From: a virus
Taxonomy: Duplodnaviria > Heunggongvirae > Uroviricota > Caudoviricetes
DNA: 31,998 nucleotides
Strand: one strand, 5' to 3'
IMG/VR virus record: IMGVR_UViG_2724679538_000010
Coordinates: 1 to 31,998 of that record
Shown: in pieces, positions 5,461 through 28,542 of the stretch
Layout: each line of letters begins with the position of its first letter
Position numbering within the stretch: the first letter of the stretch is position 1
The notes under the pieces: generated by a model
Databases searched by the model: none
Told to the model about the DNA's origin: nothing
Seen by the model: only the letters and a program-made list of their open reading frames with translations
Program-made: the position numbers and the translations under genes

Positions 5461-6651
5461 TTAATTGCTGTTAACCGAGGTGACCAGATTTGCCAGGTAT
5501 TTATCGGTAATACGCTGGCGCAGGGTCAGGTTTTCAAGAGGAGGCACCGGGGTATAGTCGTAGTCGATATACAGTTTTCCGGCCTTAAGGGTTTCCGCAT
5601 CGTTGGATTCTTCGCTGAACCAGCAGGTCGCATCCACGATATAGCCGTTTGTTTTCAGCTCACGGAATTTGGCATTGATGCCGTCAACGATGTCGCGAAT
5701 CAGCGTTGCGGTGATGGGCTTGTCCACCGCCCACATGTGCGCCTCAGCCATCGTGTCGGCCAGCACCTGCGCGGTGCGGGTGTAGTTTTCAAAGAGGAAC
5801 AGCGGGTCATCAGAGCAGGTACGGTTACCCCAGAATCGGAAACCGTCGCGTCGAATCAGCGTTGTGACGCCAGACTCGTTAAGCAGGTCAGCATCGGTAC
5901 CGGACTCCTGCAAATCCCAGAATACGGACGCGCTGATGCCGGTAACACCGTTTACCCCGACGTTGGACAGCGTTTTATGCCAGCCCTGCTCCTGGTCGAT
6001 TCTGGCACGCAGACCCAGCGCACGGGCGGTGGCATACGCGGTGGCGATGGTACTGGTGACCGTATCCCATGCGAGGAAATCCGGCCAGATGACCATCAGC
6101 TCACGCTGACTGAAATTCTGGCGGTAGGCTTTCACCTCGGAAATGGTTTTACAGCCCCATGCGCTGATATACCCGAAAGCGCGCAGCTTCTGGCAGACTG
6201 ATGCCAGTGCAACAGCCACCTCTTTGGTGTCCAGTCCCGGCACACCGAGAATACGCGGTTTAACACCGGTTACCGACTCTGCCGCCAGCAGGGCTTTCAG
6301 TCCGGTATACTGACCGTTTTCGTCAGTGGTGCCGATGATATTGGAAACGGTCTGCGCGAGTTTCGTTTCTTCGTCGTCGCCGGTGCCGTCTTCCACACGC
6401 ACGACAACGGTGACCGGTTTTGACTGGTCAGCGATGGCCTGCAGCGACGCCGCCAGCGTGCCTTTTTTACCGGCCTTTGCAATTGCGCTCTGCACATTGG
6501 TAATCAGCACCGGTTTATTGAGGGGGAAGGTTTCCGCATCTGCATCGCTGGCCGTACAGACCATGCCGACAATGGCAGTGGATACGGTGGAAATGACGCG
6601 GGTGCCGTCGTTAATCTCCAGCACCTGCACGCCGTGATGATAGTCACTCAT
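5461..6651 (-). CDS. FI: Contractile tail sheath protein FI
   Basis: 396-aa ORF; length and position match P2 FI sheath protein. Confidence 0.9.
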   Translation of the reverse strand: MSDYHHGVQVLEINDGTRVISTVSTAIVGMVCTASDADAETFPLNKPVLITNVQSAIAKAGKKGTLAASLQAIADQSKPVTVVVRVEDGTGDDEETKLAQTVSNIIGTTDENGQYTGLKALLAAESVTGVKPRILGVPGLDTKEVAVALASVCQKLRAFGYISAWGCKTISEVKAYRQNFSQRELMVIWPDFLAWDTVTSTIATAYATARALGLRARIDQEQGWHKTLSNVGVNGVTGISASVFWDLQESGTDADLLNESGVTTLIRRDGFRFWGNRTCSDDPLFLFENYTRTAQVLADTMAEAHMWAVDKPITATLIRDIVDGINAKFRELKTNGYIVDATCWFSEESNDAETLKAGKLYIDYDYTPVPPLENLTLRQRITDKYLANLVTSVNSN

Positions 6652-6754
6652 CCGTTTAACTCCGTGGTTAATGGGTGCAACTATTTTCTGTTGGGTAGTG
6701 CATGAGACGCTATTTGACCTGGCTGGTCAGTGGATGAAACAACAGATAAAGAAA

Positions 6755-6775
6755 AGGCGGGCAATCCGCCCGCCT
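6755..6775 (-). terminator. Intrinsic-terminator-like hairpin oriented for the minus strand (8-bp GC stem aggcgggc/gcccgcct, 5-nt loop, followed on the minus strand by TTTTCTTT)
   Basis: Inverted repeat read directly from the sequence; T-rich tract only on the minus-strand side. Confidence 0.45.
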
Positions 6776-7139
6776 GCCTTGATTTATACTCTCTCAGTTT
6801 CCAACTGACAAATTACGTAACCAAAATTCTGTCAAATCTGACCGCCTGTTTGAGCAAGAAGCGGATGTTTGCCCCTTTTCTCGTCGTTGATGAGGTTTTA
6901 ACGAACCAATATATCGGCCAAATGGCAGCTAATCAGGATGCAGAACGAGTGGGTATTGAATGCCTTCAGGTTAGGCCTGACAAAATCCCCAGGGGAAAAT
7001 ATCAACCTTTGGACTTTCTGATTACTTAATGAAAGATGGCTTTAGGCATCTTTTTTATGATAATTTCTGGCAAACTACTTTTTTTGTTTATATAAAAACT
7101 ATAATATTGGGTTTAACTCACCCAAAGGGAATATTTAAT

Positions 7140-8063
7140 ATGGCAATAAATCAAAAAGACATCAAATTGTTGTGGGGCCGTTCCGGAAATCGATGTGCAA
7201 TTTGTAGGAGAGAGTTGACACAGGATAAGAACTCCGTTAATTCCGCATTTACACTGGGGGAACAGGCACATATTATTGGAGAGAAGGAAGATGCGGCTCG
7301 AGGAAAATCGAATTTAACTCTGGATGAAAGAAATAGTTATCACAATCTTATTCTCCTTTGCCCAAACCATCATACGGAAATTGATAGAAATGTAGAAGAT
7401 TGGCCAGCCGAAAAACTCTATAACGTTAAGTCAGCACATGAGTTATGGGTTTCTGAAACTCTTAGTAGAGTTGAAGATAAATTTTTTCTAGCCAAGCAAG
7501 TTTCAGTAACTTCAATAATTGACTCCGCAGTAAAATATTGTCGTTTAGAAAATTGGCAGAATTGGACTAGCTTTGCATTATCATCAGATCCTAAGTGGCC
7601 TAAAAATTTACCCGATGATATATTTGAATTTCGGCAAAAAGTCATTTCCGCTATATGGCCTAATGAGTTTGATGAACTGCGAAGAGCCACTGAAACATTT
7701 TCCATAACCCTTAACATAGCCGCCCAAACTTTCATGGAACATTCTAAACTTTATGAAGACACTTATTATCCAGATAAATTTTATAAAACTGGTGGCTGGA
7801 ATGTTAATTATGAAGAAGACGTTGAAAAATATAAGCAATGGATTCAAGAATGTCATAATTGGTTAGTGGAAGCCACAAAATCAGCTAATTGGTTTGCTGA
7901 TGTTGTTCGTAGAGATATTAATCCCATGTTCTTTGCAGAGAAAGGGCGATTCTTAACCATGGAAGGTGATATTCTAGGTTTTAAGGCTAAATTACATGTT
8001 TATACCAAAGAACAAAGAGATTCACTGCCTGACTCACTTGATTTGACAATGAACCCTCATTAA
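7140..8063 (+). CDS. HNH-nuclease-domain protein with an uncharacterised C-terminal domain; cargo gene at the P2 Z/fun position
   Basis: N-terminus has C-x2-C (CAICRR), AHIIGE and NLILLCPNHH motifs consistent with an HNH zinc-finger nuclease fold; AT-rich codon usage unlike the flanking backbone; start chosen at the Met preceded by AAGGGA, an upstream in-frame ATG at 7029 is the alternative. Confidence 0.6.
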   Translation: MAINQKDIKLLWGRSGNRCAICRRELTQDKNSVNSAFTLGEQAHIIGEKEDAARGKSNLTLDERNSYHNLILLCPNHHTEIDRNVEDWPAEKLYNVKSAHELWVSETLSRVEDKFFLAKQVSVTSIIDSAVKYCRLENWQNWTSFALSSDPKWPKNLPDDIFEFRQKVISAIWPNEFDELRRATETFSITLNIAAQTFMEHSKLYEDTYYPDKFYKTGGWNVNYEEDVEKYKQWIQECHNWLVEATKSANWFADVVRRDINPMFFAEKGRFLTMEGDILGFKAKLHVYTKEQRDSLPDSLDLTMNPH

Positions 8064-8197
8064 GAACTAAGTGTAATGATTACTATTATATCATACAAAT
8101 TGCTCCAACAAGAATGGTGGCATTGAAGAGTTCAATGCGAGACTACTATAATGGCATAATCATGCTTTTAACATAAATTATTCATAATGTTATAAAC

Positions 8198-8221
8198 GTC
8201 CGCTCTTGGCACAGAGCGGAC
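8198..8221. terminator. Hairpin between convergent genes (9-bp stem gtccgctct/agagcggac, 6-nt loop), likely bidirectional terminator
   Basis: Perfect inverted repeat lying between the 3' ends of the HNH gene (+) and G (-). Confidence 0.5.
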
Positions 8222-8270
8222 TGTCAGATTAGGCTTTACTCTGTGCTATAGGTATGTAAGCTCATACAAC

Positions 8271-8798
8271 TTATTGCGGCATTTCCGGCCATTCAGGATT
8301 TGCAGGATCCACACGGCTGACCAGAACGCTGTAGCGTTCCCATGACTCCAGTCGTGCACGTTCCTCATCCGTCGCCATATTCAGCCTGACAGCGCGTTCC
8401 AGTGGCTGAATAACGCTTTCCGCTTCGGAAAGTAACGCGGCCTTTTGTGATTCTGCCTGTTGTTGCTGTTCATCTGCCGTATAAATCCGTTTAACCACAG
8501 CACCATCCTTAAACATCCATTTACCTGAGTCGTCAGCACGTCGATTGGAGGTAATATCAGGAACCTCAACAACGCTAAAACCTTCAGGATTAAGCGTTGA
8601 AGCATCTCTGGTGATGGCGACAATAATATTATTTTCATCGTAAACAATCTTTATTGTGTCTGGCTGAAAGTTCTTCACTTCCTCATACCAGTTTTTTCCG
8701 TCTTCGGACCATAACCAGATAACATCAAAATTCTTTGTTAGCTGATATTGTTCTTTTGTTTTTGGATTACCTGACTTAATGTTCTTTAAATGCTGCAT
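8271..8798 (-). CDS. G: Tail fibre assembly protein G
   Basis: 175-aa ORF immediately downstream of the tail fibre gene; length matches P2 G; AT-rich 5' half typical of tail fibre assembly genes. Confidence 0.8.
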
Positions 8799-8801
8799 AA
8801 C

Positions 8802-10811
8802 TTACACCTGCGCAACGTTATACCATGTGCCATTGATGTACTTTTGTATCGGCCTGAAGATGGCTTCATCATCGCCATCTACTTCACCAATGATTCTTAA
8901 TCCGGTAATCGTGTGTCCGGCTTTTTCATAACGACCACCTCGCGCCATCAATTGAACAACTCGCGTACCCAGGCGAACATCTTTCACATAGCGGGAATCA
9001 AAATTCCCCCAATTGCTGGGTTGCATCTGACCATTAACAGCAAATATTACCGAGTTATCTGTATTTCGCTGGCTATAGAAATGCCATCCGGACTCATCGC
9101 CTAACTCTGCAACCACTGGACGGTTGGAAGCACCCCATAAATTAAAGGTAATATTCTTCGTGGATGTGTTAGAGCTGGATAGCGAGAACTTTTTACTATC
9201 CCCTGCCTGAATATTTTTAAAAGCAATAGCCACTCCATTCTGAAAACGGAATACACGCTGACTGTTAGCATAAACATCAAGAATACCGTCTCCATTCTGT
9301 TTAAATCCGGTATCATTATCACCAAGGACAATAGAGCTACCACCTAGTGCATTCGTCGTACCAACTCCAAGACAGCCATTAATGACGGCATTAACAAGAA
9401 TATTTAGTGCATCCCATTTCAGCTTCATCAGGTCTTTTGTTGTGGTACTCTGGCGGCTTCTCCATTTGAAATATTCATTGCCGTTATCCCCCGTTTCAAA
9501 CCACATGTATGAATCAGCGTCACCATCGGCATCATTTTTAAATCCAATCTTCGCCCAGTCAGTATTTCGAATCCAGGCAAGGATTGAGTCGTTTTCAAAA
9601 GTAATCCCGCCGGACAAGATATCGCCATTCTTTTGCACCGCGTTCCTGGCCCTGTTTACCGTTTCCTGCAAACCGAGATATTCGATAACGGCGGCAACGG
9701 TCGATTTAGCCAGAATATCCCGCCCGACTTTTGTCAGGGTCGCCAGGCTGGCAACATCATTCCCCGTAAAATACGGAAACCTGTCTGCCGCAGTAGCAAG
9801 CCCCGCCAGCGCCGTCAAAGTGGCATCTTTCGGTTGCTTACTCGCAAGCGCATTAGTCATGGTGGTAGCAAAATTCGGGTCATTGCCCAGCGCCGCCGCC
9901 AGCTCGTTCAGCGTATTCAGTGCGTCAGGCGACGAGTCTACAAGGGCGGCAATCGCGGCCATAACGAAAGCCGTGTTTGCGATCTGAGTATTATTCGTTC
10001 CCTGTCGCGCAGTTGGCGTCGTTGGCGTTCCGGTCAGTGCAGGGCTGTTTAATGGCGCTTTCTTGTTCGTTTCATCCATTACCGTCTTAACGGCTTTTGG
10101 TGTTGCGGCGAGCGTTTCAGACGTGCTGTTAGTCGCACTACTGAGCTGAACAAGGCCTTTTCGCGCGGTGGTGGCGTCCTGTGCAGTATATTTCCCGTTA
10201 GCAAGGTCATAGGCGGTCTTTACCGCTTTCGGCGTTGCAGCCAGTGTTTCAGACGTGCTGTTGGTCGCACTGCTTAACTGAGTAAAACCTTTTGCGATCA
10301 GCGAGGCGTCAGGGTGACGTCGTGACTGTTCATGTTCTGCAATTTTGTCATCAACGTAATCCTGCGTCGCCATCACCGTTGTGGTGTCAATGGTCAGCTC
10401 CACTGAGGCCACACTGCTGACGATGATGACCATGCGGCAGGTCTGCGAACGCCCTGAGCCTTCGGCAAGAGCTGGCTTATAACTTTCGGCCATGTTCGCC
10501 ACGGCAATTAACGTTCCCGCATCATCGTACAGGCCAAGCTCACGCATCCAGAAACCGCCCACCTCCGGCGGAATAACCAGCTCTGCGATAATATAATTAC
10601 TGTTTCGTTTGTCCTGACTGATTTTGTTCAGCGCATGTCGCCAGACTTCGTGGATAAGCCCGGTCTGTCCGGCATCCGGGACAGGCAATTTACCACCGCC
10701 ATCCCCGACGGCCATCGTGGTAATGTTGACCTTCCGCCCTCCCGGTGCGGTTGCCGCTGCAAGCTTTGCTGCACCGGCAGTGGTGATAACGGTTTTGAAT
10801 TTTGTGCTCAT
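8802..10811 (-). CDS. H: Tail fibre protein H
   Basis: 669-aa ORF, conserved N-terminus MSTKFKTVITTAGAAKLAAATAPGGRKVNITTMAVGDGGG typical of P2-family tail fibres; internal tandem repeat. Confidence 0.9.
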   Translation of the reverse strand: MSTKFKTVITTAGAAKLAAATAPGGRKVNITTMAVGDGGGKLPVPDAGQTGLIHEVWRHALNKISQDKRNSNYIIAELVIPPEVGGFWMRELGLYDDAGTLIAVANMAESYKPALAEGSGRSQTCRMVIIVSSVASVELTIDTTTVMATQDYVDDKIAEHEQSRRHPDASLIAKGFTQLSSATNSTSETLAATPKAVKTAYDLANGKYTAQDATTARKGLVQLSSATNSTSETLAATPKAVKTVMDETNKKAPLNSPALTGTPTTPTARQGTNNTQIANTAFVMAAIAALVDSSPDALNTLNELAAALGNDPNFATTMTNALASKQPKDATLTALAGLATAADRFPYFTGNDVASLATLTKVGRDILAKSTVAAVIEYLGLQETVNRARNAVQKNGDILSGGITFENDSILAWIRNTDWAKIGFKNDADGDADSYMWFETGDNGNEYFKWRSRQSTTTKDLMKLKWDALNILVNAVINGCLGVGTTNALGGSSIVLGDNDTGFKQNGDGILDVYANSQRVFRFQNGVAIAFKNIQAGDSKKFSLSSSNTSTKNITFNLWGASNRPVVAELGDESGWHFYSQRNTDNSVIFAVNGQMQPSNWGNFDSRYVKDVRLGTRVVQLMARGGRYEKAGHTITGLRIIGEVDGDDEAIFRPIQKYINGTWYNVAQV
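10082..10292. repeat. Imperfect tandem duplication of about 130 bp inside H, encoding the repeated peptide QLSSATNSTSETLAATPKAVKT
   Basis: Two near-identical blocks (gtttcagacgtgctgtt(a/g)gtcgcact...) visible in the sequence and in the H translation. Confidence 0.7.
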
Positions 10812-12257: not shown

Positions 12258-12605
12258 TCAACTCACAGGGATGGTTAACGAAAGTGGCTGGCCGGTGTCG
12301 TTGTGCTGACCGGTTAACGTGACCGTCATTCGCCCGTCAAAACTGCGCGCCGTGGTGACGGATGACAGGGTGACGCGGGGTTCCCATTTCAGCACGGCCA
12401 TGTAACAGGCGACCTTAATCTGCAACTCAAGCGCCGGGGTCTGCGGCTGGTCAATCATTGACGCCAGCAACGAGCCGTAATCACGACGCATCACCCGTGA
12501 GCCGACCGGTGTGCGCAGGATATCGCCGATACTCTGGCTGATATGCTCAAGGTCAGTGACAGTCAGGCCATCACTGCGATTCATTCCGAGATAACGCGCT
12601 GTCAT
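12258..12605 (-). CDS. W: Baseplate protein W
   Basis: 115-aa ORF; length and position match P2 W. Confidence 0.85.
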   Translation of the reverse strand: MTARYLGMNRSDGLTVTDLEHISQSIGDILRTPVGSRVMRRDYGSLLASMIDQPQTPALELQIKVACYMAVLKWEPRVTLSSVTTARSFDGRMTVTLTGQHNDTGQPLSLTIPVS

Positions 12606-13237
12606 AGAGGGCTCCCGGTTGTGCCGCCGCTGTCGCCGGGGTGTTTATGGGTATGCAGTACCTTACCGTTTGATGAGAGTTCACCGCCGGTGTGTTCAAT
12701 GTTGCCGCGCATCGTCCCGCCCTTCTGCACTTCCAGCGTGCCGGTAATCAGCCTGTTGGTGCAGACCACCTCCGGTGTGTCCAGGGTGACGCGGGTTGAT
12801 GCTTTCACCATGACCACCGGCACCGTGGCAGTAACAGAATCAGAAGCCGTCACGCTGGCCGTTTTAATTCCGCTTACCGTAAGTGCACTGGTTTCGGGTT
12901 CATACTCAATCACCGCCCCGTCAGGGAAACGGATATGCAGGGCATCCGCCGACGCAGACGGCGCGGGGTTATCGCCGGAATAAATCCCCGGCAGAACAAA
13001 CGCCGTGTCAAGTTCACCGCCCACGGCCAGAATCAGCACCTGCTCCCCCACGGAAGGTGCCCACCATGTGCGCGAACGCCCGGCACGACAGGTCAGCCAC
13101 TGAAGCCAGTCGGTGCACATGCCGCCGGTCTGCACACGGCAGCGACCGGCTTTAAGGTTGGTTTCGACGACAAGGCCGGTACGAATCATGTTGCGCAGTG
13201 CGCGCGCGAGTTCCTGGATATTTGCGAGAGTGTTCAT
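12602..13237 (-). CDS. V: Baseplate spike/assembly protein V
   Basis: 211-aa ORF; length and position match P2 V. Confidence 0.85.
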   Translation of the reverse strand: MNTLANIQELARALRNMIRTGLVVETNLKAGRCRVQTGGMCTDWLQWLTCRAGRSRTWWAPSVGEQVLILAVGGELDTAFVLPGIYSGDNPAPSASADALHIRFPDGAVIEYEPETSALTVSGIKTASVTASDSVTATVPVVMVKASTRVTLDTPEVVCTNRLITGTLEVQKGGTMRGNIEHTGGELSSNGKVLHTHKHPGDSGGTTGSPL

Positions 13238-13303: not shown

Positions 13304-13756
13304 CTAACGGTCGAGGTGAGCCAGGATAATCTCTTCAATCATCTGCACATCCTCACCGGTAAAGCCGAGCAGAGGACGCGCCGGATAATCAATTTTCTTA
13401 CCGTCTTTCCGGTTTTCTTCCGAAAGACCGAACTGATGCACACTGGCGATTTTCGGTGACTTCCCGCCGTAAAACTCCATTGATGCCTGTTCCGGGCTGG
13501 CGCGGATATGCAAAAAACGACTGGTGATAAGTTTCGCAAACATTTTTCGCTTAACACGGCCAGTCTTTTTTCTGGCGCTCTGCTGCTGGCGTGGCGCGTA
13601 GGGTATGCCGTCCGGAGCTTTCTGTGCCATCACCCGACGCTGCTGACTCTGCCGCAGGCGTTTCGCCAGTTCGGCACTCAGTCGCCGACGCCCTGACGGT
13701 GACAGCGATTCAGTCAGTCCGGTCAGCCGGTCTTCAAAACGCTTAAACTCATTCAT
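13304..13756 (-). CDS. S: Tail completion protein S
   Basis: 150-aa ORF; length and position match P2 S. Confidence 0.8.
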   Translation of the reverse strand: MNEFKRFEDRLTGLTESLSPSGRRRLSAELAKRLRQSQQRRVMAQKAPDGIPYAPRQQQSARKKTGRVKRKMFAKLITSRFLHIRASPEQASMEFYGGKSPKIASVHQFGLSEENRKDGKKIDYPARPLLGFTGEDVQMIEEIILAHLDR

Positions 13757-22672: not shown

Positions 22673-22909
22673 CGCCCGCTTCATAGGGCGGTTTTAATGC
22701 AGTTGCTTAGATACTATGGATCCGCACCAGCTCTGACCGCAAGCAGCCGGAACGGGCATCCCCGACGCATGCAAAAACATTCACTTGTTGCATGCACGGC
22801 TTATTTAATGACAAATCAACTTAAATTTACAAAATCCACAGGTATGGATACTTTGCGAACATGATAGGCTTACGAGAATTATCTAGCCTATTTTTGACCG
22901 GAGCAATGT

Positions 22910-23851
22910 ATGCAAGGTAAAGTTGACGAACAGCAATCCAATGATATTGAAGCTGAGTTTGGATACTATCCAGTAGAAGTTAACGTTGAAACTGATGATT
23001 TTTCTTTACTTACTTTACCCGGTCTAGCGGAAAAAACAAATCTTATAAACAATCACAGAAATGTTATTAACGGTTGGATATACCCAGGAAACCAAGAAGT
23101 ATATAACCTCAATGGAGGCATATCCACAATGCCTTTTAGCCAACGAGTATTTGGCTTACCCAAAACACACTCACTAAAATTAAAAAATACATCTTCACTA
23201 GAAACTCTCAATTTTGCTGTGTGGTGTCTGTCTTTTTTCAAAGGGATAAGATTAACAACTACTGATGCCGGTTTTTTAGACGCAACCCCAATAAAACCCA
23301 GCAAATTAACTGACTTTATTCTGGTCAAGTGCTCTGAAAAAGAGGTTATAGAATTAGCACTCAAATACATGTCTAGCGAGAAAAAAACCAAACACGCACC
23401 AATAAATATCGCAGCAATAGTGCATGCACTATTTTTATCCCAAAACCCACAATACCTTAGCTTCGAAAAATTCCAGTATCTTTATATGGCACTGGATAGT
23501 TGCTTTGCTTTAACATGGGCAGAAAAGAACAAGTGTACAGAAAAGACTCTAAATCACTCCAGGCGCTTGAAGTGGATCTGCAAAACTTATGGCATACCAC
23601 GACCATCATGGGTTACAGGCAAAAAAAACATTACAAACATCCGCAATGAAAACTTTCATGAAGCTATGTTTCATGGTCAACCACTTGGCTTTACCACTAT
23701 TAACAATTATCAATATGGAGATGACATATTACAACAAATGCAGGCTTTAATTTGCCGATTGCTCGTTGCGATTCTTGGTGTTAACGCCCCCGATTACATC
23801 ACATCGAACGTGAACTCTCGTGAATATCATTCACTAACATTAAAAATATAA
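22910..23851 (+). CDS. Hypothetical 313-aa protein, AT-rich cargo gene, no recognisable motif
   Basis: Long uninterrupted ORF with GGAG SD upstream; composition and codon usage unlike the prophage backbone. Confidence 0.55.
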   Translation: MQGKVDEQQSNDIEAEFGYYPVEVNVETDDFSLLTLPGLAEKTNLINNHRNVINGWIYPGNQEVYNLNGGISTMPFSQRVFGLPKTHSLKLKNTSSLETLNFAVWCLSFFKGIRLTTTDAGFLDATPIKPSKLTDFILVKCSEKEVIELALKYMSSEKKTKHAPINIAAIVHALFLSQNPQYLSFEKFQYLYMALDSCFALTWAEKNKCTEKTLNHSRRLKWICKTYGIPRPSWVTGKKNITNIRNENFHEAMFHGQPLGFTTINNYQYGDDILQQMQALICRLLVAILGVNAPDYITSNVNSREYHSLTLKI

Positions 23852-23866
23852 AACGACTAAAAATAC

Positions 23867-23892
23867 TCTCCAGTAACAATAAGTACTGGAGA
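23867..23892. terminator. Hairpin between convergent cargo genes (9-bp stem tctccagta/tactggaga, 8-nt loop); T-rich flank on the minus-strand side
   Basis: Perfect inverted repeat between the stop codons of the 313-aa gene and the membrane-protein gene. Confidence 0.5.
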
Positions 23893-23933
23893 TGTATTAT
23901 CACTAAAACCAATAAAAAATCACAACTAATGCT

Positions 23934-24533
23934 TTACTTAGATAGTTTGTCTTTAATTATATTCAGAACACCAATTATTAATTCACTGATTGGCGTGGCC
24001 AACTCAATAGTATTAGATGTCGACTTTGTTCTAAAGTCTTTATCTGTCGGGTGTTGAAATGCTGATTTAAGAAGAGTCAAAAGCAAAGTTAAACCCACAC
24101 CAAGGATGAATGCAACAATAGCTATTAGAGAACTGGCCGATAACCAATCGGTGGATAAACCAGAAATAGATTTTCTAACTTTATTAGTGTCTGAAGATGG
24201 TGTTATCCTCTCATCAGCCATCTTCGGATCCGCAGATAAAGCAGAACATTTTTCTGCTGAAACACAAGTTTGTGCATCTACTTTTTGTGTTATCGCTGTG
24301 GCAATACTGCTTTTCGCTTCCAGCAAGCCATTTCCAACAGCCAAAGCAAAGTTAAGCCCCTGCCATAGAAATGTACAAGCAAAACAAAGCACAACGGCAG
24401 AGAGCACTAATCGCATACTTCTACGCTCTATACCATCCCGTCTATCTCGCCTTATAAGGATATCAGGATCTAAATCGCCCTTAGGAGTGGTTCCTTGCTC
24501 TGGGGACTGTCCAGATAAATCAATATCAGCCAT
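23934..24533 (-). CDS. Predicted two-helix membrane protein (199 aa) with charged N-terminal region; putative effector
   Basis: Two hydrophobic segments (LVLSAVVLCFACTFLWQGLNFALAV and LIAIVAFILGVGLTLLLTLL); co-directional with and 66 bp downstream of the peptidase gene. Confidence 0.6.
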   Translation of the reverse strand: MADIDLSGQSPEQGTTPKGDLDPDILIRRDRRDGIERRSMRLVLSAVVLCFACTFLWQGLNFALAVGNGLLEAKSSIATAITQKVDAQTCVSAEKCSALSADPKMADERITPSSDTNKVRKSISGLSTDWLSASSLIAIVAFILGVGLTLLLTLLKSAFQHPTDKDFRTKSTSNTIELATPISELIIGVLNIIKDKLSK

Positions 24534-24538
24534 AAAAA

Positions 24539-24572
24539 AATCACCCTTACATATACAAACGTAAAGGTGATT
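24539..24572 (-). promoter_or_regulatory. Intergenic hairpin plus U7 tract between peptidase and membrane genes; intrinsic attenuator that also occludes the membrane gene SD
   Basis: Minus-strand RNA AAUCACCUUUA-(12 nt loop)-UAAGGGUGAUU-UUUUUUU-AUG: 11-bp stem with one G.U pair, 3' arm contains the SD-like AAGGGUGA. Confidence 0.5.
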
Positions 24573-24599
24573 TTAAACAGGTTAAAAGTTAAAGGCTAA

Positions 24600-25085
24600 T
24601 TAATAAGCCATTCCTAAGCTCTTTAAGCGCCAATGCATAGCGGCTTCTGATACATTAAAGATGCTTGCTAATCTCAAAGTGCTATCAATACCTTCTCTGG
24701 ATACCAATTGACGTATAGCAGACTCAGGCATTAACAACTCAGCAGCAAACTTGTTTGCTTCAACCTCACGGTAATCACGAGCACCTGTTGAATAATTCCC
24801 GACATTATCCCGATGGTACTCTCCGTCCTGGGTATGCCCCAGCACATGATGACCTAACTCGTGTGCAACAGTAAAACGTTGACGATTAGAATGTTCACTA
24901 GAATCAAAATAAATCCTATGGACACCCTTTTTGATGACAGCCAGACCGCTTAACCCATCGTTGTTATAAGCCGATTCCTCAAGTGCTTCAACACGAGCAC
25001 CCCACGCTTTAGCAAGCTTAAACGGATCGACAGGTAGTCGGCGATCCCAATAGCGGTCAAGCAGTTTTTTAGCTGCATAGCTCAT
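24600..25085 (-). CDS. ImmA/IrrE-family (COG2856-like) zinc metallopeptidase, 161 aa
   Basis: HEXXH motif in FTVAHELGHHVLGH followed by EANKFAAELLMPE, characteristic of ImmA/IrrE peptidases; strong SD AGGAGG 6 nt upstream of the ATG; no HTH domain in the protein. Confidence 0.75.
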   Translation of the reverse strand: MSYAAKKLLDRYWDRRLPVDPFKLAKAWGARVEALEESAYNNDGLSGLAVIKKGVHRIYFDSSEHSNRQRFTVAHELGHHVLGHTQDGEYHRDNVGNYSTGARDYREVEANKFAAELLMPESAIRQLVSREGIDSTLRLASIFNVSEAAMHWRLKSLGMAY

Positions 25086-25807
25086 GGTTGCCTCCTACGT
25101 TAAAAAAGTTAAGTATGCACAGCCATATCACAGTTGTTATTTTATGTCAAGGCTGTTTTTCAGCCATTACTATAACACTAATCCACGTTTTCCCATAACA
25201 TTTTCGACATCATATATGCATTCAGTTCTGCATATAGCGCTTATCTTTGCTGATAACACGAGATGAATACGCGCAATCAGCCCACGATTTATAAAAAACC
25301 TTATAAATCAGAACATTGAGTTAAAAAAAACACTAACTACTTGCGCAGCGAGTTGTTAAACCTCAGCGACACTAAAAGAAAATTTCAGAGTCACCGCAGC
25401 TTCCACAGAAAACGCAACATAATGATTTTATTGGAATTTATGGCGCTATTTTTAATTACTTGTTTAAATCCGCCATATTGAAACTGTGCATTTCTAGCCA
25501 CTCACAACTTTAAAAAATTTACATTGCTTTCAAGACCTTATCATCCGTAGTCTCTGCTTTTTACTTTGAGCTATATCAAAAAAAGCTCAAACATCCTTGA
25601 TGCAAAACCAGTATTACACAACATAAAATGCAACCAGAAACAACGACATACCATATATTGTGTTGTTCAGGTCCTCTGTTCGGTGATATGCCAGATCACT
25701 TTGCGTTTAAACAGAGCATTATTTCAGGGCAAGACTTCGCTCAATAGTCACTCCGCCTTAGAAGCGCATATATCGGCGGAAATTGCCCTCTGCTTACAGG
25801 AGGCGAT

Positions 25808-25921
25808 ATGAAGAAGTGCTATTACTGCATTCTCGTTCTGGCCCTCTTTGGCTATCCATATGGTAGTCCGAGTGGTTTGTCAGTAAACGTCAGTAATATC
25901 CATGTAAGTATTTTTCTTTAG
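25808..25921 (+). CDS. Possible small hydrophobic protein (37 aa, MKKCYYCILVLALFGYPYGSPSGLSVNVSNIHVSIFL)
   Basis: Consensus SD AGGAGG 7 nt upstream of the ATG; ORF ends just before a strong terminator; below the 60-aa cutoff of the ORF track; no homology evidence. Confidence 0.25.
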   Translation: MKKCYYCILVLALFGYPYGSPSGLSVNVSNIHVSIFL

Positions 25922-25933
25922 TATGCTTCAAAC

Positions 25934-25963
25934 AAAAAAACCACCTGCCAGGGTGGTTTTTTT
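25934..25963. terminator. Bidirectional rho-independent terminator (A7 - ccacc..ggtgg hairpin - T7)
   Basis: aaaaaaaccacctgccagggtggttttttt read directly; lies downstream of A on the minus strand and of the small ORF on the plus strand. Confidence 0.65.
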
Positions 25964-26223
25964 GCGCCCGTCATCAATCCGATGAAAGACTAGCAAGACT
26001 TCGCTCGAGATGAATTATGCTTCGACATAAAGTCACTCGCAATGGTTTTATTAACCGAAATAGATGCTCTTTTATGACTCGAATCAAATAGCTGCCTTCA
26101 ATTACATGCTAACGATTCAATACAATTTAGCCTTCTGATTCAACACGCTATTGCTCCTCATCTACCTTAGAGGTGCTTCGCATAATCCATTCAAAGACAT
26201 ATAAAATCACGCTGTATTTTTAC

Positions 26224-28542
26224 TCAAATGGGTAACAAAAATCCCGGCCAATCATCAGCGACCTGATAAGTGAAAGGTTTCCCGTCATAATTTACGGTCG
26301 CGCCACGCGCCAGCGCCTCAAGCTCCCATCGTTGCGGCCTGATACCGTTCTGAGCGAGATCAACGCGGATACGGGTAATTTGCAATCGTTCCGACCGGGT
26401 CAGCCTGGCCGACGGTGCTATTTCATGTGGTTTTAACGGGCTTCCGTTTCTTTGCTGACGATTTGGTGTTTTCAGGCCGTGCTTTAATGCACCCCTGAGC
26501 GTCCTCACGACCTCCGGGTCATTCCATTCGATAACACCGTCATCAACCAGATTAAGCACTGCTGCGGCGTGCTCAGAAGGCGAGGGAGCCGGTAACGAAG
26601 TATTACCGCCGGTGAGCTTTCCACAGTTATTGACAGGACTCCGAGGCGCGGCGATGCCGCTTTTTAAAGTCAAAGGCTCAACGACCGGAACTTTCGGCAC
26701 AATGCGCCAGTCCGTCGTTCTGGTGATATGAATATGACGCGCGCCGAGATGCGGCGCGTAAATGCCGACCACTCTCTCGACTTCTTCCTCGTATTCGTTA
26801 ACGTCATCCGACGGGCTACGAGCGACCCTGACAGTCTGACAATCGCGCGGGACATTTGCCCCGCCCTGCGCGCTGATATACAGCGCAAAATCGCCACTGT
26901 CTGCGGCGGCGCGTGCAGCCTCCACGCGTTCGTCAAATTCATCAGCAATGCTGACGCCGCGAGGCAATTTACGTAGCTCACGGTAAGCTCCCATTGTCGG
27001 CAGGCCAACCGTTTTAAATTGCGGGATGCGCCACGTTGACGCCCATGCGGTAACAGCCGCCGCAGTATCTTTCAGCGGTCTGCCGGTATCGTTATCGAGC
27101 TGACCATCCAGTGCATAGCCGTCGATATTTTTTGAAATGTATTTCGCGATATATCCCGCAGCACCGCCCCGGTTAAGGTGTTTTGCCTGAAAACGGTTTC
27201 GCGCGGCTCCTCTTTCGTCGCCATCCTCTTTGAGCGCATAGCGACGCATGATTTCGATAATCTGGTTACGCTGGCGTGGATTACAAAAAAGCATCATATG
27301 CCAGTGCGGCGTTCCGTCGTGGTGTGGCTCGACGACTCGCAAACCGTAGACCTGTAAATCATTATCCTTGAATGCCGTGCGCATCAGGCTCCAGATACGA
27401 CAGAGATAACGCTGCGCATCCTTTGGATTAAATGCCTCATCATTCCAGCCGTGATTAAGCTGGACGGTTTTATTTTCGCCTTTTCCAACCTGACGTGTCG
27501 GGTGATACTTTGACGGCGCGGTAAGCGTGATAAACATCCCCACATCACCCTCTGATGCGGCGTAACGCTCAATACCGGCAATGGTGTTCATCAGCTCCAT
27601 CCGGCGAATTTCAGGATTAGAAATACTGCCCATCACCTTACTGATAAGGTCGATGCGCTCGCCGGTTTCCCTGTTTTCAAGGTCACACGATTTAAGAAAT
27701 TCCAGATTTGCCTGGCGGCGCGCACGCACATCACGAATGGCATGTTTACTGGCATAAGGTGAACGGTCTTTATTGACCTCCCCGACAGCAATCAGTAACG
27801 CCTCATGCCAGCGCATACGCTGGCCTTTAAGCTGACTAATCCACCACTCATCGTTAAACAGGCGGGCAATGGCAGAATATGCCTGCCTCGTGGTCATCTG
27901 TCCTTTACGGTATTTTTTCCAGTAGAGAGGGGAAATATTGAAAGCACGTGCAGCGCCAGCAACATGACCATACAGGTGAGCCTGCGCCTCATCCGTAAAC
28001 AGCGATTCTTTTTCGCCATGCGCATCCACCCAGGCATCGCAGAGTTCCTCATACATCATGAAAAGCTGCGATGAGATACGGGCGGCAAACTTTTTCAGCT
28101 CCTTGTCATTCATTCCTGGCAGGCGCGCATAGTGGTCACGCTCTGCCAGAAACAGCAACGACGCGTCGGTGTTCATTTCATGGCGCTGATTCACACGCTC
28201 AATACGCGGCCATAAACGACGCTGAAAAGTGGATGTGAGGAAATAAAACCCGTGTACCGGACTTTTATTGCTCCGGATGTAGTCATAGCGTGAAGTAAAC
28301 AGCGAGCGCAAAAAGTAAGGCAGGCGGTTAATCGTGGATAAAACACCTTGCACCTGACGCATCTCGTCACGTGTAAGAGGTCTTTCTCGCCCGACGGCCT
28401 CGCGTGGCGCGTTCCATGCATAAGCACCGGTAAACGTCTCACCGGTGCCTGCGGCAAATGCTGACGGAGGGACAAAACGCCCGGAGGCTTTAACGGCCAT
28501 ATGAGCCAAAAGCCTCTGAACAACGCTTGCTGAGTTGCTCAA
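26224..28542 (-). CDS. A: Replication initiation endonuclease A (rolling-circle initiator)
   Basis: 772-aa ORF; conserved HUH-type region (PHHDGTPHWHMMLF) and paired Tyr region typical of P2 gpA family. Confidence 0.9.
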   Translation of the reverse strand: MSNSASVVQRLLAHMAVKASGRFVPPSAFAAGTGETFTGAYAWNAPREAVGRERPLTRDEMRQVQGVLSTINRLPYFLRSLFTSRYDYIRSNKSPVHGFYFLTSTFQRRLWPRIERVNQRHEMNTDASLLFLAERDHYARLPGMNDKELKKFAARISSQLFMMYEELCDAWVDAHGEKESLFTDEAQAHLYGHVAGAARAFNISPLYWKKYRKGQMTTRQAYSAIARLFNDEWWISQLKGQRMRWHEALLIAVGEVNKDRSPYASKHAIRDVRARRQANLEFLKSCDLENRETGERIDLISKVMGSISNPEIRRMELMNTIAGIERYAASEGDVGMFITLTAPSKYHPTRQVGKGENKTVQLNHGWNDEAFNPKDAQRYLCRIWSLMRTAFKDNDLQVYGLRVVEPHHDGTPHWHMMLFCNPRQRNQIIEIMRRYALKEDGDERGAARNRFQAKHLNRGGAAGYIAKYISKNIDGYALDGQLDNDTGRPLKDTAAAVTAWASTWRIPQFKTVGLPTMGAYRELRKLPRGVSIADEFDERVEAARAAADSGDFALYISAQGGANVPRDCQTVRVARSPSDDVNEYEEEVERVVGIYAPHLGARHIHITRTTDWRIVPKVPVVEPLTLKSGIAAPRSPVNNCGKLTGGNTSLPAPSPSEHAAAVLNLVDDGVIEWNDPEVVRTLRGALKHGLKTPNRQQRNGSPLKPHEIAPSARLTRSERLQITRIRVDLAQNGIRPQRWELEALARGATVNYDGKPFTYQVADDWPGFLLPI

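Follow-up and report, generated by a model that had tools for sequence, protein, structure and literature searches.

What does a P2-like prophage carry between its tail sheath gene FI and its tail fibre assembly gene G, and what could a single gene do there? The question is raised by one stretch of viral DNA, IMG/VR record IMGVR_UViG_2724679538_000010, positions 1 to 31,998; "the window" below means this whole stretch of 31,998 nucleotides (nt). The FI–G interval of the prophage holds one long open reading frame (ORF), 7140-8063 on the + strand, which encodes 307 amino acids (aa), while the flanking late genes are on the - strand. An earlier note, made from the letters of the window, had described a single AT-rich + strand gene opposite to the late genes, and its ORF, strand and G+C content (GC) are confirmed. 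The protein joins an HNH nuclease domain to a C-terminal domain that matches no known family. With slightly better than even probability, the gene is a stand-alone, single-protein anti-phage system in which an HNH DNase is gated by the C-terminal domain, carried as a lysogenic-conversion 'moron' in the fun(Z) hotspot of the prophage. The gene and its two domains are as follows.

7140 to 8063, + strand: gene for the HNH protein with the new C-terminal domain, 307 aa, stop codon included (ORF, homologues, AlphaFold2 model, RefSeq WP_052728123.1)
7140 to 7472, + strand: HNH (His-Me finger) nuclease domain of Cap5/SPARHA type, residues 1-111, with an N-terminal helix at residues 5-15 and the zinc and catalytic residues
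7473 to 8060, + strand: C-terminal domain, residues 112-307, predicted acidic up-down helical bundle with three beta-hairpins (AlphaFold2 model)

Nuclease domain and C-terminal domain

By fold and catalytic set, residues 1-111 are an intact HNH nuclease with predicted activity. The N-terminal HNH motifs pointed out earlier are present (C19-x2-C22, H44, N69 and C74-P-N-H77-H78), and Pfam HNH_2 (PF13391) matches residues 19-83 with 28.5 bits, above its cut-off of 21. The AlphaFold2 monomer model of the 307-aa protein, with a mean predicted local distance difference test (pLDDT) score of 95, gives a true HNH fold of the beta-beta-alpha-metal type and a confident helical bundle behind it. Among 82 diverse members of the family, C19, H44, N69, C74, H78, D82, R54 and H100 are conserved at 98-100%, and C22 at 98%. 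The 'CPNHH' motif aligns with 'CPGCH' of Cap5, suggesting a CCCH zinc site (C19, C22, C74 and H77) with H78 as the catalytic metal ligand. H44 is aligned with the sole residue that differs between the Cap5 entries 8fm1 (AHI) and 9dif (AAI).

The alignment with HNH families shows that the best relatives of this domain are Cap5, SPARHA and DS-7. When the family profile is compared with the PDB, the best match is 9om4, the HNH-APAZ effector of the SPARHA short-Argonaute system (E 5.5e-43), and Cap5 structures follow at 1e-16 to 1e-26. The PADLOC matches are PDC-M68A (E 4.5e-31) and Cap5-type 'SAVED_HNH/Effector' models (1e-15 to 2e-29), all of them limited to residues 1-113. The N-terminal helix (K9, L11, W12, G13 and R14) equals the active site in conservation. 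It is the element that forms the HNH dimer in SPARHA and Cap5, where activity also requires two such dimers to assemble into a dimer-of-dimers with a double active site; collateral DNA degradation results (PMC12738770).

The C-terminal domain appears from the model to be a new fold, and it is confidently modelled. Its 196 residues have no match in Pfam, NCBIfam, PHROGs or PADLOC, in keeping with the earlier description of some 200 C-terminal residues of no known family. A Pfam scan of 41 members one by one gave nothing consistent for the domain, its profile found chance matches only among PDB sequences (for example Cry78Aa and designed proteins), and the BFVD viral structures contain no relative. 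It matches neither SAVED nor known modified-DNA readers nor DNA-binding folds. The domain is acidic across the family, with a median isoelectric point (pI) of 5.2, a net charge of -8 and 93% of members below pI 6. Its conserved residues are W139, W142, Y215 in an FYK loop, N250, the invariant R257, P262 and G269, the last four of which lie in the 'ANWFADVVRRDINP' end of a long helix. We read these residues as one proposed functional patch.

The composition and the partners of the C-terminal domain point to regulation and not to DNA targeting. It is proposed to be a sensor or regulator because it is acidic, has no DNA-binding fold and is fused in other proteins to a protease and to a nucleosidase. 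The same properties bear on a different explanation, in which the protein is a restriction-like nuclease of type II or type IV style that hits incoming DNA directly, with no abortive step, and in which the C-terminal domain provides target selectivity, such as for modified bases or a DNA structure, or stabilizes a dimer. However, a net charge of -8 is unlike a domain that reads DNA, and no known reader or DNA-binding fold was matched. Nor would the protease and the nucleosidase that carry the same domain need DNA targeting, and the HNH part is nearer to the collateral, activation-dependent nucleases of Cap5 and SPARHA than to McrA. Direct restriction is therefore unlikely.

Spread, fusions and restriction-modification loci

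The distribution of the family suggests a selected cellular function that moves between very different genomes. A first homologue search found 909 proteins, mostly full length and 302-306 aa long. An exhaustive search of 1.84 billion cluster representatives (50%-identity clusters) gave 4825 clusters at E <=1e-3, many of which share the HNH domain alone, and 198 clusters at E <=1e-30, mostly full-length proteins of 300-340 aa. A locus scan with one genome per species, using an alignment of 20 closer sequences as the query, found full-length homologues of 40-67% identity in more than 12 phyla. They occur in Gamma-, Beta- and Alphaproteobacteria, Campylobacterota, Desulfobacterota, Cyanobacteria, Bacteroidota, Verrucomicrobiota, Acidobacteriota, Deinococcota, Chloroflexota, Planctomycetota, Armatimonadota, Firmicutes and a lineage of the candidate phyla radiation (CPR).

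The closer copies are found in several kinds of mobile DNA and have no constant partner. A P2-like prophage of Morganella has a 68%-identical copy in the same slot between the sheath and tail-fibre-assembly genes. In Enterobacter hormaechei a 76% copy is the terminal cargo of an island with an integrase and a D5/Pox_D5 primase, a small islet in the Pseudoalteromonas chromosome contains a 73% copy, and 62%-identical copies are found on Shewanella plasmids. ORFs were called in 60 loci and three neighbours per side were clustered; no conserved partner gene was found, and no neighbour family was common to more than two of the 60 loci, suggesting that the gene is a self-contained module. The neighbours (two per side in 37 loci) are mixed and include a few defence genes, namely type III methyltransferases, AriA, AbiL, PD-T4-6 and MADS components.

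The Pseudoalteromonas locus has a layout of its own. At L005 6970-9504 the homologue follows an unrelated 302-aa gene of equal length and precedes a 174-aa gene, and neither neighbour has a Pfam match. The tandem 302-aa gene is not a paralogue. The locus may be a small islet of several systems.

Another explanation is a selfish or addiction element; phage genomes commonly contain HNH homing endonucleases. The gene could be a homing-type HNH that spread into the FI/G slot, or a prophage-stabilizing toxin with the C-terminal domain as its inhibitor. The foreign composition of the gene and its presence in the same slot of two different P2-like phages would fit, and PHROG HNH families match it, if weakly. 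However, the homologues lie in unrelated contexts and share no flanking sequence suited to be a homing site, and the many unrelated cargos of the slot fit recombination at conserved backbone ends and not homing. The 60 loci contain no antitoxin-like partner, and what the HNH domain matches best are effectors of immunity and not homing enzymes. Conservation of the full length at 40-67% across more than 12 phyla, together with the swapping of effectors described below, also points away from a selfish element, which we consider quite improbable. An immune role of a self-contained sensor and effector fits these contexts better.

The two domains of the protein are exchanged independently within the family. 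The same HNH domain occurs with other C-termini in clusters P0193, P0206, P0212 and P0256, and likewise in the validated system DS-7. Conversely, the C-terminal domain is found behind a caspase-like Peptidase_C14 domain in P0190 and behind a PNP_UDP_1 nucleosidase/phosphorylase domain in P0270. The caspase fusion is a real architecture found in three clusters: P0301 and P0302, on contigs of 74 kb and 479 kb, cover it end to end at 67-68% identity, and its C-terminal domain shares 73% identity across 217 residues with the one in the HNH member P0123. The fusions were found among the cluster representatives and in a further search that took the caspase fusion as its query; when the C-terminal domain profile was used to look for further fusions, the top 120 matches were all HNH proteins.

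One subclade is embedded in type I restriction-modification (R-M) operons. The caspase fusions lie between hsdS and hsdM, with hsdR upstream, in metagenomic loci L095-L097 (for example L096 4509-9922). The nearest HNH members, P0123 and P0304, are 325 aa long and about 44% identical to the window protein, and they occupy the same place between hsdS and hsdM (L098-L102), where their genes begin 4 nt ahead of the hsdS stop and so overlap it. The exchange of HNH and caspase domains between hsdS and hsdM amounts to an effector swap at a fixed position, one of a kind known to harbour latent abortive-infection effectors such as PrrC. In L098-L102 (for example L098 5595-11074 and L102 1247-7917) the HNH gene is followed by a gene for a MORC-like ATPase (HATPase_c_3), or by an RVT_1 reverse transcriptase gene and a SIR2 gene, and then by hsdM. 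The insert looks like a defence 'islet' within the R-M operon. A SIR2_2 gene is placed after hsdM in some of the R-M loci. A linkage of the whole family to type I R-M was considered and rejected, hsdM being within 10 kb in two of the 60 loci.

The slot, the gene and other variable sites

The position and orientation of the gene agree with the fun(Z) slot of P2. P2 itself has fun(Z) between its G and FI genes, on the strand opposite to both, and the placement of a cargo island at this position, made earlier, holds for gene order as well as orientation. The labels of the flanking genes are taken from the RefSeq annotation of a 99.8% identical prophage of E. coli STEC1588, and the edges of the cargo were set by aligning both sides with P2 and Wphi. 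The features of the region are these.

5461 to 6651, - strand: FI, tail sheath gene and left flank, ORF of 396 aa (RefSeq label in the STEC1588 prophage; collinear with P2 FI)
6755 to 6775, - strand: left hairpin, GC-rich with a T-run on the - strand, 8-bp perfect inverted repeat, terminator-like site in the backbone
About 6871 to 8195, no strand: the cargo island itself, foreign and AT-rich DNA of about 1.3 kb, GC 0.358 (similarity to P2 and Wphi stops at about 6870 and restarts at about 8196)
7100 to 7105, + strand: candidate -10 box TATAAT, 35 nt before the ATG, with no good -35 (read from the sequence)
8198 to 8221, - strand: right hairpin after G, 9-bp stem, perfect inverted repeat, kept in P2 and Wphi, backbone
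8271 to 8798, - strand: G, tail fibre assembly gene and right flank, ORF of 175 aa (STEC1588 label; collinear with P2 and Wphi G)
8802 to 10811, - strand: H, tail fibre gene (ORF in the late-gene block)

The cargo is shorter than the interval between the two late genes. GC is 0.345-0.383 across 6801-8000 compared with 0.53-0.58 toward FI, and the gene itself has a GC of 0.366 and a third-codon-position GC (GC3) of 0.279, whereas FI has a GC of 0.563. The earlier note had drawn the island at 6652-8270 with a gene bounded by hairpins. The cargo does lie inside this range, but about 220 nt and 75 nt of it are backbone; likewise both hairpins exist, but they belong to the phage and are not the gene's own. 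The left hairpin is within the conserved pF upstream region, just past the pF activator site, and is kept in Wphi and degenerate in P2. In the P2 annotation the counterpart of the right hairpin is labelled a putative rho-independent terminator serving the V operon. The right hairpin is the putative backbone terminator of the V-W-J-I-H-G late operon and may also terminate the convergent cargo transcript. Since both hairpins are conserved P2/Wphi backbone, the cargo extends only from about 6871 to 8195, and the hairpins were rejected as cargo boundaries or as regulatory parts of the gene. Insulation of the slot by the hairpins may be the reason why very different cargos are tolerated there.

Other phages carry other cargo in the same slot. 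Wphi has orf44, and other P2-like phages have a SMEK-domain gene or a 'metal-binding' gene. The 'SMEK domain-containing' gene is found in phages of the vB_EcoM-12474 series (for example vB_EcoM-12474III). A SMEK-domain protein is reported as the validated defence system DS-27 in the DefensePredictor study (PMC13092281); the slot gene and DS-27 are linked through the annotation name alone.

The gene starts later than annotated and probably has its own promoter. RefSeq begins the protein at ATG 7029 (344 aa), a start rejected as too long on the lengths of the homologues; the start at ATG 7140 is correct, since it is shared by more than 100 homologues, 302-306 aa long (MAI...). The TATAAT at 7100-7105 is likely the -10 box of a promoter belonging to the gene. 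In the Enterobacter copy a TATAAT stands at the same distance although the remaining upstream DNA is unrelated, and a consensus promoter scanner made no call at this site in the window. A search across the gene copies for a conserved upstream RNA or leader found none. The 269 nt of cargo upstream of the gene (6871-7139) have no conserved counterpart in other copies. They include an inverted repeat of 10 bp (7032-7053) that closely precedes the candidate promoter and is possibly an operator. RefSeq also lists a 99-aa 'hypothetical protein' at 6730-7029, whose ORF begins within the conserved pF promoter backbone; it is probably spurious, as copies of the gene elsewhere have no conserved upstream ORF.

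The gene is rare and nearly clonal in E. coli. It is found in nine of 5426 complete E. coli genomes, at >=99.4% identity and always with both P2 flanks; the flanks occur in 1056. No diverged paralogue was found in the 5426 genomes, and the INPHARED set contains no sequenced phage with the gene.

The orientation of the gene also bears on whether it serves the prophage in some way other than defence. It might act in the lytic cycle, breaking down host DNA for nucleotides, or interfere with plasmids or conjugation. Not all P2 morons are defensive, and partition systems and toxins occur in the other P2 hotspot as well (PMC9122126); SPARHA-type HNH systems target plasmids as well as phages (PMC12738770). 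However, orientation against the late operons and a separate promoter region argue against co-expression with lytic genes, most members of the family are outside phages, and the sister clade sits within R-M operons, as is typical of immunity genes. A function of this kind is very improbable. For the defence reading the same arrangement has a simple consequence: with its own putative promoter, directed against the late genes, the gene can be expressed in the lysogen.

The fun(Z) slot is not the only variable site in the window. A second, larger AT-rich island at 22800-26400 (GC 0.34-0.44), between the portal-side genes and a 772-aa replication gene, is the classical tin/old hotspot. It contains three ORFs.

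22910 to 23851, + strand: ORF of 313 aa, no PADLOC match
23934 to 24533, - strand: ORF of 199 aa, no PADLOC match
24600 to 25085, - strand: ORF of 161 aa, PADLOC capP at E 1e-30, also RmrA models (ImmA/IrrE-type peptidase)

At 8400-9600, G and the distal (C-terminal) part of H also have a low GC, 0.40-0.45 compared with about 0.55 in the remaining late region, which fits a separately exchanged host-range module. In the STEC1588 prophage (L001 12670-13455) an extra + strand gene for a 262-aa 'hypothetical protein' lies between baseplate gene V and a virion morphogenesis gene. The window has no such gene, V (12602-13237) being followed directly by 13304-13756, and this interval would be a further variable slot in these prophages.

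Proposed mechanism and comparison with known systems

The protein has already been listed as a predicted defence protein. Vassallo et al. 2022 (PMC9519451) noted the fun locus as a second site of P2-like phages that is enriched in defence genes, and three systems have been validated there. Neither that paper with its supplements nor Rousset 2022 (PMC9122126) nor the NAR 2026 survey of P2/P4 hotspots mentions an HNH protein. Table S10 of the DefensePredictor study lists 1,041 clusters from the E. coli pangenome that are predicted to be defensive and are uncharacterised, and in it WP_052728123.1 has a mean log-odds of 7.16 and is called 'Predicted novel defense gene' (PMC13092281); the suggested cut-off is 4, as quoted by the NAR 2026 paper. 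This is the accession of the window gene in STEC1588, and a defence role of the protein is therefore already published as a prediction. The accession is absent from the cloned constructs in the examined portions of Tables S6 and S11 of the same study. The earlier suggestion that the gene is a plausible anti-phage effector is supported by the hotspot, the copy in the Morganella slot, the HNH of Cap5/SPARHA/DS-7 type, the R-M subclade and the DefensePredictor score, all of which are consistent with it.

A sensor-effector mechanism can be proposed from these features, and from them we infer the defence function, the sensor role of the C-terminal domain, activation by oligomerisation and an abortive outcome. 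The N-terminal domain would be a non-specific HNH DNase that has no activity in the monomeric or dimeric state and is switched on once HNH dimers are brought together. In the lysogen the C-terminal domain would keep the nuclease off. It would detect a cue of infection, which may be a phage protein, a small molecule or a nucleic-acid product of infection, and would then drive the oligomerisation that activates the HNH domain, either through release of auto-inhibition or through nucleation of oligomers. The active nuclease would degrade DNA in the infected cell, so that the cycle of the incoming phage fails, probably by abortive infection. In this mechanism the C-terminal domain would take the place of SAVED or of prokaryotic Argonaute (pAgo)-APAZ as the element for sensing and assembly control.

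A broader proposal is more tentative and falls short of even probability. The C-terminal domain, a compact acidic helical module, may be a new class of stand-alone sensor that reads its cue directly and switches on at least three unrelated effectors, an HNH DNase, a caspase-like protease and a PNP-type nucleosidase. It would have spread horizontally through more than a dozen phyla, and the clade wired into R-M operons could possibly be a PrrC-like guard that fires when restriction is disabled.

Several points weigh against a gated defence nuclease. The C-terminal domain has no detectable relative of known function, and its role as a sensor is read from architecture alone. The structure prediction covered the monomer only, and the PNP fusion was found on a single 3.4-kb contig. 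R-M genes are near two of the 60 loci, confining the link to one subclade, and the window gene itself has no R-M neighbour; among the neighbours in the broad sample, ordinary genes prevail and defence genes are a minority. No experimental test of the window protein or of any family member was found in the literature. A construct named 'HNH1' was not defensive in the DefensePredictor study (PMC13092281), showing that HNH proteins predicted to be defensive do not always validate. HNH1, whose nearest known relative is the HNH of Cas9, is probably a different family. Even so, direct restriction, a selfish element and a non-defence trait are each less consistent with the data than the sensor-effector model.

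The family may be useful for the study of how bacteria sense infection. Single-protein systems that sense and kill are the simplest bacterial immune receptors, and this family, a known nuclease with a conserved and reused domain of about 195 residues, is a small test case for a new sensing principle. Apart from the HNH portion, neither Pfam nor PADLOC has a named member of the family. Finding a nuclease in a P2 hotspot is no surprise; the C-terminal domain, by contrast, is new, widespread, swappable between effectors and experimentally tractable. The gene adds a concrete cargo to the less-studied second hotspot of P2-like phages, and the layout of hsdS, an HNH or caspase protein with the C-terminal domain, and hsdM is a lead on the coupling of effectors to restriction systems. 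If it can be activated on demand, a trigger-dependent collateral DNase of 307 residues would also be of biotechnological use.

The gene shares its place with P2 fun(Z) but not its sequence. Both lie in the G–FI slot, in the same orientation against the late genes, as non-essential lysogenic-conversion cargo. The question of whether the protein is a Fun homologue or something new had been left to an alignment, and this shows no similarity to P2 Fun(Z) (NP_046777), which has 528 aa compared with 307 aa (best BLASTP E 0.5); homology was rejected. PrrC, a latent anticodon nuclease, sits inside the EcoprrI type I R-M locus. The hsdS–hsdM position of the R-M subclade recalls this arrangement, but the effector here is a predicted DNase, not an anticodon nuclease, and it has no sequence relation to PrrC. 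McrA-like type IV enzymes have a modification reader domain, which the window protein lacks, and its HNH is far nearer to the Cap5 and SPARHA nucleases than to theirs.

The closest systems resemble the protein in the nuclease and differ from it in everything that follows. Cap5 of CBASS (PDB 7rwk, 7rwm and 8fm1/8fmf) has a related HNH, with matches that end at about residue 113-126. Its C-terminal domain is SAVED, whereas the window protein has a helical bundle with no SAVED match. The Cap5 operon has a CD-NTase, while the window gene is solitary between tail genes with no recurrent neighbour in 60 loci; since there is no CD-NTase or other conserved neighbour, no source of a cyclic-nucleotide signal is evident. 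The HNH-APAZ protein of SPARHA (9om4), a collateral DNase activated by oligomerisation (PMC12738770, Nat Commun 2025), is the best match among solved structures, N-terminal dimerisation helix included (E 5.7e-18 with the single sequence). The match to 9om4 covers only residues 1-125, a second stretch is not significant and the C-terminal domains are unrelated. Unlike SPARHA, the window gene has neither an APAZ domain nor an Argonaute partner.

Two further systems complete the comparison. DS-7 ('SVIR', WP_225403053.1) is a single E. coli gene with a Cap5-like HNH, validated by experiment as defensive in the DefensePredictor study (PMC13092281, Science 2026). Its HNH is 33% identical to that of the window protein over 111 residues (E 1e-11), but its C-terminus resembles phage-baseplate gp34/DUF2634, with a different fold and no similarity past residue 109. 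The match to protein A of PADLOC PDC-M68 is confined to the HNH part (profile positions 5-114 of 253), and PDC-M68 has further components in PADLOC, whereas the window gene has no partner genes. No literature match was found for 'PDC-M68' or for 'Cap5-like' together with HNH. Overall, the window protein is outside CBASS, SPARHA, DS-7 and PDC-M68, sharing their nuclease module and joining it to a new domain.

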